Origin: Escherichia phage vB_EcoM_3HA11
Length of the DNA stretch: 64,000 nt
Sequence record: MN342150
Reading direction: 5' to 3' (one strand)
Below the pieces are notes generated by a model. It was not told where the DNA came from. It saw only the letters and a list, made by a program, of their open reading frames with translations, and did not search any database. Position numbers and translations under genes: made by a program. Of the stretch, positions 26,186-48,458 are shown one piece after another. How positions within the stretch are numbered: position 1 is the first letter of the stretch; every line of letters begins with the position of its first letter.

Positions 26186-26257
26186 TTTAACTCAGAAGCA
26201 TTCAATAGATGAAGGGGTTGCTATAATAGCAGCTCCTTTTGTTTATTGGAGCATGTC

Positions 26258-26920
26258 ATGTCTTATTCGCTCAAAGGGCTGTTGAAGCGCCCTGTGCATT
26301 TGTTTGTCAAACCACCTGCTGTAGAAGGGGAATATTCGGCACGAGGAGAGTTGTATTACATTAAAGGCTCCAATGGTAGTGGTAAGTCTACTGTGCCCTC
26401 TTATTTGGCGGAGAATGATCCTCAGGCGTATGTCGTAACCCATAACAGTAAGATCATGCTCACGGTTTGTCCATCTTACAATATTGTCTGTGTCGGTAAA
26501 TATGACAAGTCTAAGTCCAAAGGGGTTGATTCTCTGAAGGATACTGAGCAGATGTTGTTCGCGTTGTCTATTTCTGACCAACCAGAATACCTGAAATATG
26601 ATGTGATTTTCGAAGGCATCATTCCGTCTACATTATTGAGTTCTTGGATCCCCCGCCTGACACGCCCACCACGTGAATTGGTCGTCCTCTTTATGGATAC
26701 CCCTCTTGAAACCTGTATTGCCCGTGTTAAATCGCGTAACGGTGGCGCAGACTTCAATGAAAGTCTGGTGGTCGAGAAGTGGGAGCGCGTTCACAACCAT
26801 CGGGGGCGGCATAAAGAGTTGTTCCCTACCGTGTGTGCGGGTATGATGAAGTCTCACGGTCTAACTGTAGACCAAGCTGTAATGGCGTTCCTCCTCCGTG
26901 ACTTTGGGAGCATTGACTAA
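26258..26920 (+). CDS. P-loop kinase (candidate nucleotide or DNA-base kinase)
   Basis: Walker A GSNGSGKST; first gene of a translationally coupled operon; its stop overlaps the start of the hydroxymethylase gene. Confidence 0.55.
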   Translation: MSYSLKGLLKRPVHLFVKPPAVEGEYSARGELYYIKGSNGSGKSTVPSYLAENDPQAYVVTHNSKIMLTVCPSYNIVCVGKYDKSKSKGVDSLKDTEQMLFALSISDQPEYLKYDVIFEGIIPSTLLSSWIPRLTRPPRELVVLFMDTPLETCIARVKSRNGGADFNESLVVEKWERVHNHRGRHKELFPTVCAGMMKSHGLTVDQAVMAFLLRDFGSID

Positions 26921-27966
26921 TGGAAATTAAAGCTATCAATAACAACGACATGCTGAAACAGGCTGTCTTGGCTATCCGTGAATACGGGATTGAATCTGAT
27001 CCTGGCAACGCGGAGATCAACACTGACGGCACCCGCTTTCTTGATGGTGTGACTATCACCGTCAGTGATATCCGTGACCGCTGGTTATCCGTTGAAGGTC
27101 GCAACTCATCGGCCATCGCAGCTATCGGTGAGACTTTCTGGGTGCTGGCTGGGCGCAATGACCTGAAGTTCCTGTCACGTGTCCTGCCCCGCGCTGCCAA
27201 CTTCTCCGACGATGGCCTAACATGGCGAGCCGCTTATGGGCCGCGCCTGTACGCCCATGGTCAGTTACAGAGCGTCATCAACCGTCTCCGCAAAAACATC
27301 AACACCCGTCAGGCGTATCTCACCATCTATGATCCGTCTCTGGACTCTGATGTTGGTCTGGCCAAGCACAACGGCTCAAACGAAGCGAAGACCAAAGACA
27401 TGGTGTGTAACCTGGCTCTGTTATTTGCTGTCGTTGAAGGTCGTCTGAACCTGACGGTCATCAACCGCTCACAAGATGTCCTGTGGGGTATGAGTTCAAT
27501 CAACTTCATTGAGTTCTCTATCCTTCAGGAAGTGATCGCGCAGGTGCTGGATGTAGACGTCGGCCAGTACAAGCTGTTCTCTAACAATCTTCATTACTAC
27601 AACAATGAAGTCAGCCAGAAGCAGCTGGGTAAGATCACGAAGGACACCAAAGTAGAAGCTGGGTTCATCAACTCCATGATTCACTTCACGAACGTGACCA
27701 ACCAGAACCATATCCGCAATCTGTTCACTGGTGTGCTTCATCACTGTGATATCGGTAGCCCGTGGGAAACTGTGGTCGCCCACCTGAAGGAGTACGATGC
27801 TGATCGCGGCCTGATCGTACAGATGGCATACTGCCTGTACTGCAAGCTGAACGACAAGCTCATCAACATGAACCTGATTCAGGATCATGGCCTGAACATT
27901 GCACTCACTCACTCTCCGGTTGACCGCAAGATCGTTGATCCAAAGTTCCTGGAAGGTGCGTTATGA
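26920..27966 (+). CDS. thymidylate synthase-family pyrimidine hydroxymethylase (gp42-like; base specificity uncertain)
   Basis: Blocks GETFWVLAGRND, DMVCNLA (catalytic Cys without the P-C-H of true TS, as in T4 dCMP hydroxymethylase DFMCTNT), NRSQDVLWG and GQYKLFSNNLHYY; 348 aa. Confidence 0.65.
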   Translation: MEIKAINNNDMLKQAVLAIREYGIESDPGNAEINTDGTRFLDGVTITVSDIRDRWLSVEGRNSSAIAAIGETFWVLAGRNDLKFLSRVLPRAANFSDDGLTWRAAYGPRLYAHGQLQSVINRLRKNINTRQAYLTIYDPSLDSDVGLAKHNGSNEAKTKDMVCNLALLFAVVEGRLNLTVINRSQDVLWGMSSINFIEFSILQEVIAQVLDVDVGQYKLFSNNLHYYNNEVSQKQLGKITKDTKVEAGFINSMIHFTNVTNQNHIRNLFTGVLHHCDIGSPWETVVAHLKEYDADRGLIVQMAYCLYCKLNDKLINMNLIQDHGLNIALTHSPVDRKIVDPKFLEGAL

Positions 27967-28532
27967 TGTATCCAAACCTTGAATTCTTTACGGGGCGTAA
28001 GCGCTCCGGCAAGGACTTCTGTTTGGAGTCCCTGATCAGCTACCACCATCTACAGGGAGACAAGGACATTCAACGCCTGTCTTTCTCGGATGAGCTGCGC
28101 CGTGTTGCCAACTACATCTACCCGTGGCTGCCTGAGGAGGTGGAGGATGCTGTGAAGGACGTTTCATTCATACACCCCGATAACCCCAAGGGCTTAACTC
28201 CACGGCAGATCTGGCTTCATCTCGGCAGCGATACGGGCTTGCGTTACGTACAGCCTGATCTGTTCCTGGCGTTCTTCAAGCGCTTCCAGCTTCCTCTGGT
28301 AGAGCAGAACCCTCACGTCCATTATATCGTGAGCGACCTGCGCACCCCCCAGGAATATGAATGGGCGCTGAGTACGAAATGTCCTATCACCCGCATTTCA
28401 AAGGCCGACCGCGCTGGTATCATAGAGGACGATATAGAGGCTTTCATTGATAAGATGGAAGTTGATTATGAATTTGTCAATCCGTTTGAAGGTTGGCAAC
28501 CGTTCGTCAAATTTTATAGGGATCGGAAATGA
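27963..28532 (+). CDS. 1: deoxynucleoside monophosphate kinase (T4 gp1-like)
   Basis: P-loop GRKRSGKDF matches the T4 gp1 GVKRSGKDT pattern; ATGA overlap with the upstream gene. Confidence 0.65.
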   Translation: MMYPNLEFFTGRKRSGKDFCLESLISYHHLQGDKDIQRLSFSDELRRVANYIYPWLPEEVEDAVKDVSFIHPDNPKGLTPRQIWLHLGSDTGLRYVQPDLFLAFFKRFQLPLVEQNPHVHYIVSDLRTPQEYEWALSTKCPITRISKADRAGIIEDDIEAFIDKMEVDYEFVNPFEGWQPFVKFYRDRK

Positions 28533-29077
28533 TCACAACAGAGCATATTAAAAGTCTGCTCGAACTTCAAAAGGCCACCAACGTGGCCTATTTTGGGGAA
28601 GAGTGGAAGAATGTATGGAGTCAGAACGCGATCATCAACTCCATCTATCGCGAGTGGGCGGAGTTCCTTGACGAAACCACCCGCGACTGGAAGGTCTATG
28701 GTAACGACATCGGGTTTCACCATGCGAACGCAGTCTATGAACTGGTGGACGTGGTTCACTTCATGCTGTGTTTCATCCTCGTCGATCGCACCAAAGGAGA
28801 GATTGAAGAAGAAATGGAGAATCTTGGCCGACGGCTCGTCCCAGGGACGAGTTCAGTAGGGCATCGCAATGTTACGTATCGCCTTGGGCAGTTCATGAAC
28901 GATCCTTGCGTCGAGACTCTCATGGTCTTCCTATCGACTGTGTGTTCTTACATGGAGATCGACATTGAGACCTACATGCTGGCACACAAGCGCAAAAACG
29001 ATCGCAATCGGCTGCGTGCTGCTGGCGGCGCGAATTACGATAAGTCCGCAGAAACCCCTCTGACCCTGGAGTTCTAA
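28529..29077 (+). CDS. 56: dCTPase/dUTPase-type all-alpha NTP pyrophosphatase (T4 gp56-like)
   Basis: ELVDVVHFMLCFIL block matches T4 gp56 ELVDIFHFVLNMFV; 182 aa. Confidence 0.65.
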   Translation: MITTEHIKSLLELQKATNVAYFGEEWKNVWSQNAIINSIYREWAEFLDETTRDWKVYGNDIGFHHANAVYELVDVVHFMLCFILVDRTKGEIEEEMENLGRRLVPGTSSVGHRNVTYRLGQFMNDPCVETLMVFLSTVCSYMEIDIETYMLAHKRKNDRNRLRAAGGANYDKSAETPLTLEF

Positions 29078-29607
29078 TGTTTACAGTTGTCGTATCATAT
29101 TATGCGGAACATGCCCCGCAAATGGCAGAGAACTTTGCTGAGTTTATTAAACCTGGCAGACATGTCGTTATCGCGACCAAATTCAACAAAGAACCAGATG
29201 GTGCGGCTACTGTAACGCAACATATTACAACTCCAGAGCCGGAAACCCTTTTCAAACGTATTGAAGATTTTGCTTTTGGCGGGGAAGAAATTCCAGAGTC
29301 ATTACAGCATATCTATTTTGAAGATGCGATATATTATGTTCATGCTATTCCAAAGGATGTTACAACTGAACAAATGATGTATATCCTGAATATCGCATTG
29401 AATGTTTCTTGTGTCAACAGGGCACAGCACAATCGTCTGCGTAATATGTATTTAACAGAACGCGGGGGTTCCGAAATTAACGATGAAAAACTCCCGTCAA
29501 TAATGGCGATTCACGAAGCAATCAATATATTGTCCAAGAAAGTCTTGGGCACCGATTTATTAATTACGATCAACAAGCAAGAGGAAACGAAATGGCCGAT
29601 TCATTGA
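29077..29607 (+). CDS. hypothetical protein (176 aa) within the nucleotide-modification operon
   Basis: ORF coupled to dCTPase (TAATG overlap) and overlapping the uvsX start. Confidence 0.45.
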   Translation: MFTVVVSYYAEHAPQMAENFAEFIKPGRHVVIATKFNKEPDGAATVTQHITTPEPETLFKRIEDFAFGGEEIPESLQHIYFEDAIYYVHAIPKDVTTEQMMYILNIALNVSCVNRAQHNRLRNMYLTERGGSEINDEKLPSIMAIHEAINILSKKVLGTDLLITINKQEETKWPIH

Positions 29608-30677
29608 TGGCTCGCATGCTCAAGACAGCAAAGAAACTGGACCCGAATGCCGAAGTGCTGTCAAAGACCGATGCGCTGAAGCCTGACATTATTTGCAGTA
29701 CGGGTATTCCTATTCTGAATTTGGCCTGGTCCGGTCGTATTGATGGTGGTCTGATATCAGGCATCAAACAGTTGGTGGGGGATTCTCGTACATTCAAAAC
29801 CATGTTTGGGCTGGTAGATGTTAAGGCTTACATGGATAAGTTTCCTGATGCAATTTGTATCTTCGCGGATTCCGAAGGCGGTGCGAATGAAAACTACTGG
29901 ACATCTATGGGTATTGACATGGACCGTGTCTTGTATCTGCCGATTGAAAACGTTGAAAAGACGAAGATCAAGCTGACACAGCTTCTGAATGATGCTCAGA
30001 AAGGTGACAAGATCATCGTATTCATCGACTCAATCAGCCAGTTGCCGTCTACCAAAGAAGTTGATGATGCTATCGCGGGCAAAGACACACAAGATATGAC
30101 TCGCGCTCGCGCTCTCAATAGTTTTTGGCGTGTTATCACTCCGTTGGTCACTGAAAAGAAATTCGTTTTGGTATGGATCAACTCGTACTATGATGAAATC
30201 GGGAACCAATACGCCGAGCCGAACATCAAAGGCGGTAAACAGGGGTTCCTGTCTTCTAACCAATTGTGGTTCATCACGCGTTCTCAAGTAAAAGAAGACA
30301 AAGACCTTTTGGGATGGCAGTTTACAGTCAACATCATGAAAGGTCGCTTTGTCCGTGAAAAATCCAAGTTCCCTGTCACTGTGTTGTATGAAGGCGGTAT
30401 TGACCGTTGGTCCGGTATGTTAGAAATTGCGCGCATGCTGGGGTATGTGGATTTGGTGAGTGGTTCTTGGTATCAACGTACTGCCAAAGGCGGGTTTGAT
30501 CCAGAAAAAGAAAAGAAATATCGTAAGGCAGAGCTGGGGGATGACTTCTGGTATCCGTTGCTGGAAAACCCAGACTTTGTTGACGATGTGAACAACATGT
30601 TCGGTATCTCTCAGAGTTCGGTTATGCCTGCAGATATGCTGGAGCGCCTCGATAATGTCATCAAAACAACCGAGTAA
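29592..30677 (+). CDS. uvsX: recombinase UvsX (RecA family)
   Basis: PDAICIFADSE, IVFIDSISQL, DMTRARALNSFWRVITP and REKSKF blocks match T4 UvsX. Confidence 0.9.
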   Translation: MADSLMARMLKTAKKLDPNAEVLSKTDALKPDIICSTGIPILNLAWSGRIDGGLISGIKQLVGDSRTFKTMFGLVDVKAYMDKFPDAICIFADSEGGANENYWTSMGIDMDRVLYLPIENVEKTKIKLTQLLNDAQKGDKIIVFIDSISQLPSTKEVDDAIAGKDTQDMTRARALNSFWRVITPLVTEKKFVLVWINSYYDEIGNQYAEPNIKGGKQGFLSSNQLWFITRSQVKEDKDLLGWQFTVNIMKGRFVREKSKFPVTVLYEGGIDRWSGMLEIARMLGYVDLVSGSWYQRTAKGGFDPEKEKKYRKAELGDDFWYPLLENPDFVDDVNNMFGISQSSVMPADMLERLDNVIKTTE

Positions 30678-45314: not shown

Positions 45315-45836
45315 TTAATTCCTTACTTTGTCAGGATTAGATAATATTTGTTCGTATCCGACTTCTCCTTGATAGTCGAAAACATGCTGAAGAATCGCCA
45401 TATCGTCTACCATCCGATAAACTTCAATTCCAGCGTTCATCAATTTTTTGATTCCATCCATAATACGATATGGCTCACGATAATATACTTTATCGATTTT
45501 ACCGCTATCTATTATCTTTTGAGTGCAATTAGGGCAAGGACTATGTGTCACAAACATAACCAACCCTGTGAAATCATCTGCATTTTCGGGGATACGCATT
45601 AGAGCATTTTCCTCCGCATGAACAACACACGGGTTTGTAACAATTTGCCCGTGTTGCTCCATCTCACAAACATTCGGCATGCCAGGAGGCGTTCCGTTCC
45701 ATCCGATAGCCACAGGCTGATCAGTTTCAGGGTTTACGATAACACAACCGACTTGCAGACGCCGAGCATAACTGGTTACACCATATGCTGCAGCTGATCG
45801 CATATGAGCAAACATCATACGTGGTTTGATAGCCAT
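45315..45836 (-). CDS. cd: dCMP deaminase
   Basis: Zinc-binding motifs VHAEENA and SPCPNC. Confidence 0.8.
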   Translation of the reverse strand: MAIKPRMMFAHMRSAAAYGVTSYARRLQVGCVIVNPETDQPVAIGWNGTPPGMPNVCEMEQHGQIVTNPCVVHAEENALMRIPENADDFTGLVMFVTHSPCPNCTQKIIDSGKIDKVYYREPYRIMDGIKKLMNAGIEVYRMVDDMAILQHVFDYQGEVGYEQILSNPDKVRN

Positions 45837-47795: not shown

Positions 47796-48458
47796 CTATG
47801 ATAACTCATGGCGGTGTCGAACACACGCAGGGCAATTACAATTCTTTTTCAAAATTGGCATTTCACACCATGTCATTAAGTCATGTATTGGGGACATGTG
47901 ATGATAGAACCAAGATTTCTTGAGACTAATCAATGGATATAAAATTTCAATAGGTCTTTCCCCGTCTCTGGTCATCATGTTGTACCCTTCAATGACTTTA
48001 TTAAAAGCGGGTATCCAGTGTATTGCGTCATCGCCGTTAACATATGCCAATATATACGTGGACGGCAAGCCCCTGCCTTTAAATTGCGTGTTTAATAACC
48101 ATATCGGGGCTTGTGCTAAACAAGCGCGAAAACCACCGTCAGGGACGTTGATGCCACTGATAGGTTCTTGATGATGTGTCCAACGATACATAAGAAGTGG
48201 GGCATTTTTATTAATCCAGTTGTGAATTTTATTCCTCGCCCAATTTTCGCGTTTAGATTTGCATTTATTATTTTCGAGGTGGCAATACACAGTATGAACT
48301 GAATATCCTTTCGATAACAACCAAATCAACATGTATGTGCTATCCACCCCACCAGACCAGAACAACGTCACTTCTTGATTATTCTCCGGCAATGGAGCAT
48401 CCCCTTGAAGAACACGGTATACAAAATCACAATCAGATATTGAGACAACAATTTCCAT
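47796..48458 (-). CDS. queC: QueC-like PP-loop ATPase (7-cyano-7-deazaguanine synthase family, putative)
   Basis: PP-loop SGGVDST near the N-terminus and a C-terminal Cys cluster C-x8-C-N-C-P-A-C as in QueC zinc sites; 220 aa. Confidence 0.55.
   Translation of the reverse strand: MEIVVSISDCDFVYRVLQGDAPLPENNQEVTLFWSGGVDSTYMLIWLLSKGYSVHTVYCHLENNKCKSKRENWARNKIHNWINKNAPLLMYRWTHHQEPISGINVPDGGFRACLAQAPIWLLNTQFKGRGLPSTYILAYVNGDDAIHWIPAFNKVIEGYNMMTRDGERPIEILYPLISLKKSWFYHHMSPIHDLMTWCEMPILKKNCNCPACVRHRHELS

Follow-up and report, generated by a model that had tools for sequence, protein, structure and literature searches.

A probable dUMP 5-hydroxymethylase of the thymidylate synthase superfamily, encoded next to a 5-hmdU DNA kinase in Escherichia phage vB_EcoM_3HA11

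In 2011, Kutter and colleagues reported that phage CBA120 takes up no 3H-thymidine into its DNA, and argued that the 'thymidylate synthase' (TS) of CBA120, ViI and AG3 is a dUMP hydroxymethylase (PMC3184105). Lee et al. (2018) found 5-NeOmdU in the DNA of ViI and labelled the gene 'dU hmt' (PMC5889632), Lee et al. (2021) reconstituted the downstream hypermodification steps, and an enzyme set that included the SH-Ab 15599 homolog put hypermodified thymine into E. coli DNA. The function discussed here is already published for the ViI-like (Kuttervirus) Salmonella phages, and our assignment of it is not a new result. The fold, the diagnostic residues, the orthology and the synteny come from this analysis; the DNA chemistry of ViI and CBA120, the downstream enzymes and the activity of SPO1 gp29 come from the work of others.

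Here we examine a 348-aa protein encoded in a 64,000-nucleotide stretch of the vB_EcoM_3HA11 sequence (MN342150; the window), for which a sequence-only reading had suggested, among other possibilities, a dUMP hydroxymethylase. Its ORF was verified, and the product carries KTKDMVCNLALLF and VINRSQDVLWGMSSINFIEF, both quoted in that reading. We predict it to be a folate-dependent dUMP 5-hydroxymethylase of the TS superfamily, with a probability of about 0.93; both activity and mechanism we infer from homology, residues and gene context. The gene and the neighbours with a probable or possible part in the same pathway are:

26258..26920, plus strand: 5-hmdU DNA kinase (5-HMUDK), ortholog of ViI gp67 (Pfam PF18748, E=1.7e-111)
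26920..27966, plus strand: predicted dUMP hydroxymethylase (deoxyuridylate hydroxymethyltransferase), 348 aa (residues, fold, 75% identity to ViI Vi01_060c)
27963..28532, plus strand: dNMP-kinase-like protein (PHROG 139, E=8.9e-48)
28529..29077, plus strand: all-alpha NTP pyrophosphohydrolase, dUTPase_2/MazG-like (PF08761, E=2.5e-8; PHROG 173, E=1e-40)
29077..29607, plus strand: conserved 'phage ACT-like domain' protein, 176 aa (PF24021, E=1.6e-86)
45315..45836, minus strand: dCMP deaminase (Pfam PF00383, E=1.4e-17; annotated so in the collinear phage SP1)

The closest described orthologs are the Kuttervirus proteins ViI Vi01_060c ('thyA') and CBA120 orf073, whose genes lie in identical synteny from 5-HMUDK through UvsX. 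The megablast matches of the region are to SP1, Se-J, Det7 and other Kuttervirus phages (ViI-like Ackermannviridae); the hydroxymethylase is 99.7% identical to the SP1 copy, and the window is collinear with SP1 across at least 44 kb. Kuttervirus alleles of the gene fall into two groups by tblastn, at 93-99% and at about 74-76% identity. The present allele belongs to the SP1/Se-J/Det7 group (93-99.7% identity). Divergence from ViI is mosaic inside this one operon (26258..30677 of the window against the ViI locus L013): identity is high for 5-HMUDK (91%), the dNMP kinase (94%), the ACT-like protein (93%) and an upstream 319-aa protein (99%), and low for the hydroxymethylase (75%), the NTP pyrophosphatase (63%) and UvsX (73%).

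More distant relatives are SPO1 gp29 (DUHM_BPSP1), SP10 gp188, YuA/M6 gp17 and SH-Ab 15599 AXF41386, which have in common with the phage protein the TS-fold core, the D-x-x-C-N motif, Asn at the position of E. coli N177, Asp at that of L143 and the Arg/Ser deoxyribose residues. All four share a one-residue insertion before the Asn, carry a conserved FSDDG motif where TS has the W80 region, are 350-383 aa long with a C-terminal extension, and are linked to 5-hmdU pathway genes. Their identity to the phage protein is only 26-33%, however, and sequence alignment of the C-terminal domains is poor. T4 gp42 resembles it in lacking both the TS C-terminal lid and a His after the Cys, and the same CH2-THF-dependent chemistry with an Asp-activated water would be expected, but at the base-specificity position T4 gp42 has Asp (D179) where the phage protein has N195. 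With E. coli ThyA it shares the fold, the nucleophile, equivalents of Glu58, Tyr94, Arg166, Asp169, Asn177, His207 and Tyr209, and presumably the dUMP substrate, whereas R127 of ThyA is Gln. MilA of mildiomycin biosynthesis (PDB 5jnh/5b6d), at ~19-20% identity, differs in having Asp186 (cytosine) and Lys133'/Ala176 (ribose), against Asn195 and Arg130/Ser184 in the phage protein.

Membership of the TS superfamily is evident from Pfam PF00303 (E=3.4e-15), and PHROG 3676 is matched over the full length (E=5.7e-183). On the NCBIfam ThyA equivalog models, whose cut-offs lie at 108-427 bits, the protein scores 23-52 bits, its top score being 52.5 against a cut-off of 327 for that model. In a sequence comparison with the PDB, the CMP 5-hydroxymethylase MilA comes first (E=2.3e-15) and outranks every TS, while a BFVD fold search gave matches solely with the uninformative name 'thymidylate synthase'.

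Residues were compared in a panel alignment with SPO1 gp29, SP10 gp188, YuA gp17, SH-Ab 15599 AXF41386, T4 gp42 and E. coli ThyA, and in a second alignment of the 348-aa protein with 72 database homologs. Due to local insertions, MAFFT misplaced E. coli R21, L143 and, by one column, T4 D179; the L143 and D179 equivalences were taken from literature positions instead, and R21 had no unambiguous column in the MAFFT alignment. The key residues are Cys163 (the nucleophile), Asp160, Asn164, Glu71, Tyr106, Arg130, Arg183, Ser184, Asp186, Asn195, His225 and Tyr227. Among these the catalytic set is intact (E. coli = phage: E58=E71, Y94=Y106, C146=C163, R166=R183, D169=D186, H207=H225, Y209=Y227), and its seven members are invariant in the 73 homologs.

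Four positions are diagnostic. At the E. coli N177 position Asn goes with uracil and Asp with cytosine (PMC5175136; PMC13326640), and its equivalent N195 is Asn in 73 of 73 homologs, as also in SPO1, SP10, YuA and 15599. A hydrophobic residue at the L143 position leads to a methyl product, and Asp or Glu there activates the water for hydroxymethylation (PMC6400193; PMC13326640); the equivalent residue, three N-terminal of the Cys, is D160, again in all 73. The change D169N marks the flavin-dependent 5-hydroxylase branch (PMC13326640), and the hydroxymethylase keeps Asp (D186). The sugar signature, finally, is Arg/Ser for deoxyribose and Lys/Ala for ribose (K133'/A176 in MilA; PMC5175136), and reads R130/S184 here, the deoxyribose type. 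The base, product, cofactor and sugar positions thus all agree with a dUMP hydroxymethylase that uses folate.

The sequence-only reading had placed the catalytic Cys in a DMVCNLA motif lacking the Pro-Cys-His of TS, and had read an apparent Asn rather than Asp at the specificity position; both are borne out, by V162-C163-N164 and by N195. The features that it had named as counter-evidence do not show up in the panel alignment: the Cys lacks a following His, the specificity position is not Asp, and the folate-site residues that would have marked an ordinary TS are absent, as is the TS-type C-terminal tail. Its suggestion of a dUMP hydroxymethylase gains support from Asn195, Asp160, Arg130/Ser184, the retained D186 and the gene context. 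The features that it called atypical, the Cys-Asn pair and the extra length, are present, and both are the norm of the dUMP hydroxymethylase clade. What is, judged from the alignment, the sole peculiarity of the Ackermannviridae clade is the residue before the Cys, which is Val or Ile in 23 of its 23 members and Pro in 42 of the 50 sequences elsewhere. This replacement counts among the points against the assignment, together with the Ser of the Ser-x-Tyr 'hydroxymethylation signature' described for T4 dCH, which is Ala104 here, and Ala in SPO1 and SP10 too.

The 73-sequence alignment yielded a confident AF2 model (pLDDT 93.7, pTM 0.93), which consists of a TS-fold core (residues ~1-240) followed by a C-terminal domain of five helices (~260-340). 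Its best structural match in the PDB is MilA, and a helical domain like that of MilA stands in for the tail that seals the folate site in TS. A search of the PDB with SPO1 gp29 matched only MilA and TS, and found no dUMP hydroxymethylase structure. Identity to the ViI ortholog is 85% in the core, 50% in the C-terminal domain and 75% overall. One speculative and rather unlikely idea is that this fast-evolving domain is more than a folding scaffold and serves as a docking module for the co-translated 5-hmdU kinase, the dNMP kinase and the replisome, comparable to a T4-style dNTP-synthetase complex, or as a surface selected by host defence, and that the Val/Ile-for-Pro replacement might tune the chemistry.

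Most GenBank and RefSeq records would have the gene encode an ordinary TS that turns dUMP into dTMP, and this name is backed by the PF00303 match and PHROG families titled 'thymidylate synthase', by Asn at N177 and the conserved core catalytic residues, and by the plain T that occupies ~60% of the T positions in ViI virion DNA. It is nonetheless very improbable: the ThyA equivalog scores fall far below their cut-offs, L143 has become Asp and H147 Asn, W80 is absent (a gap column), and a helical domain stands where the folate-sealing tail would be, and it is on these cut-offs and features that we rejected it. Furthermore, CBA120 excludes the thymidine label, and the canonical T of ViI-like phages is reported to be formed from 5-hmdU after replication. 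That last report bears equally on the idea of an enzyme with two products, in which hydration and hydride transfer would yield both 5-hmdUMP and dTMP. Such an enzyme would account for the coexistence of plain and modified T in virion DNA, and it would suit both the presence of a single TS-family gene in the genome and the description in the literature of the route from 5-hmdU to T as unknown. Yet the literature describes T formation as post-replicative and sequence-specific, the dTTPase-type pyrophosphatase of the operon would destroy dTTP, and the open, Asp-containing active-site architecture is of the hydroxymethylase type, which leaves little to recommend a dual product.

That MilA is the top PDB match, by sequence as well as by structure, raised the candidate of a cytosine-specific enzyme, acting on dCMP like T4 gp42 or on CMP like MilA, and both enzyme types have, as the phage protein does, an acidic residue where E. 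coli ThyA has L143. It was rejected on Asn195, which takes the place of Asp in 73 of 73 homologs, and on R130/S184, which differ from the Lys/Ala ribose signature of MilA; since the adjoining kinase is moreover specific for 5-hmdU in DNA, cytosine is a highly implausible substrate. Even more remote is a flavin-dependent pyrimidine C5 hydroxylase acting on dUMP, of the newly described TS-fold class of 5-hydroxy-dCMP synthases (RB69 gp48, PDB 9iqc). Neither D169N nor N177D is present, as D186 is kept and invariant and N195 is kept as well; in addition, the ViI modification retains the C5 methylene carbon, and the kinase requires 5-hydroxymethyl-dU.

For the preferred reading, a folate-dependent dUMP hydroxymethylase, a mechanism can be modelled on TS and T4 dCMP hydroxymethylase. 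Cys163 would add to C6 of dUMP, after which C5 would attack the iminium form of 5,10-methylene-tetrahydrofolate; proton abstraction via Tyr106 and water would follow, and THF would depart. Rather than undergoing reduction by hydride transfer, the exocyclic methylene would then take up a water molecule that Asp160 activates, at a site left open by the missing TS C-terminal lid, giving 5-hmdUMP and THF. Asn195 would read the base as uracil, and Arg130'/Ser184 the sugar as 2'-deoxyribose.

The surrounding genes are consistent with such a product. Their order is 5-HMUDK, hydroxymethylase, dNMP-kinase-like, NTP pyrophosphatase, ACT-like, UvsX, and the junctions overlap throughout: the TAA stop of 5-HMUDK with the ATG of the hydroxymethylase (TAATG), the hydroxymethylase stop with the start of the dNMP-kinase-like gene (ATGA), and the two that follow (ATGA and TAATG), so that the three junctions after the first TAATG read ATGA, ATGA, TAATG. 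This suggests a translationally coupled operon. One candidate for its promoter is the TATAAT-bearing GTTGCTATAATAGCAGC at 26215..26235, which lies ~25 nt ahead of the 5-HMUDK start. The 5-HMUDK is 91% identical to ViI gp67 (YP_004327432), which was shown experimentally to phosphorylate 5-hmdU in DNA (PMC8989533). The dNMP-kinase-like protein is 31% identical to gp18 of SH-Ab 15599 across the N-terminal half of the latter and presumably phosphorylates 5-hmdUMP. The pyrophosphohydrolase has 30% identity to the C-terminal dTTPase/dUTPase domain of gp18, which on assay spares 5-hmdUTP (PMC13458397), and presumably acts as a dTTPase/dUTPase itself, removing dTTP and restoring dUMP. These two genes, separate and overlapping here, correspond to one fused protein in SH-Ab 15599 (gp18, L004:7108-8283); the activity assigned to the fusion is that of its C-terminal dTTPase/dUTPase alone, the role of the kinase-like half being inferred. 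The gene of the ACT-like protein, between those of the pyrophosphatase and UvsX and overlapping both, may encode a small-molecule-sensing regulator of the pathway. The dCMP deaminase, further away, presumably supplies the dUMP substrate; near it, a 220-aa protein (47796..48458, minus strand; 'QueC-like' in the SP1 annotation) has weak N-terminal matches to PP-loop ATPases (QueC E=1.6e-5, ThiI E=2.8e-4).

In the proposed pathway, the co-transcribed dNMP kinase and the host NDP kinase would convert 5-hmdUMP into 5-hmdUTP, the adjoining pyrophosphatase would remove dTTP and dUTP, and the phage polymerase would incorporate 5-hmdU. After replication, 5-HMUDK and genes elsewhere (a serine transferase and a PLP decarboxylase) would turn part of the 5-hmdU into 5-(2-aminoethoxy)methyl-dU (5-NeOmdU). 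Pfam recognised no second 5-HMUDK, aGPT-Pplase or PLP decarboxylase among 20 further ORFs of the window. The ViI counterparts of these hypermodification genes (gp160, gp226, gp243, gp247) are distant from gp67, and the remaining genes therefore probably lie outside the window.

Thymidine hypermodification in Ackermannviridae phages starts with the hydroxymethylase gene. Many of these phages are being considered for therapy or biocontrol, and the modification blocks many restriction enzymes. Although most database records name the gene 'thymidylate synthase' and the adjoining kinase 'terminase small subunit', the four residue positions suffice for a correct assignment of the hydroxymethylase. 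RefSeq phage records give that second name to the experimentally verified 5-HMUDK family, to which the present copy (26258..26920), SP10 gp186 (L002:3511-5424), YuA gp13 (L003:3733-4296) and ViI gp67 (L013:4704-5366) belong. The present copy matches PHROG 800, titled 'terminase small subunit', at E=6.7e-69, and the name of that family is apparently the source of the systematic mis-annotation.

Seventeen of the homologs carry Lys130 together with Ala184, the ribose signature of MilA, in perfect covariation and with Asn195 and Asp160 kept (P0048, P0050, P0054, P0055, P0058, P0062, P0065, P0067, P0068, P0071, P0076, P0079, P0080, P0087, P0091, P0094 and P0096); all those with a named source are bacterial. 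Two of their gene loci were inspected (L008:7526-12749 and L011:1-9077). The gene in Dickeya overlaps one for a MilB-like N-glycosidase, and genes for an MFS transporter and two ATP-grasp ligases come after it; that in Streptomyces lies in a polyoxin/nikkomycin-like set with an enolpyruvyl transferase fusion, a carbamoyltransferase, a 2OG oxygenase, a phosphatase and an aminotransferase. We read these homologs as predicted UMP 5-hydroxymethylases that would serve natural-product pathways. Many metagenomic homologs, about 520-560 aa in length (among them P0041, P0043-P0045, P0049, P0052, P0057, P0060, P0063 and P0064), exceed the phage protein by ~200 aa, which suggests a hydroxymethylase core fused to another domain.
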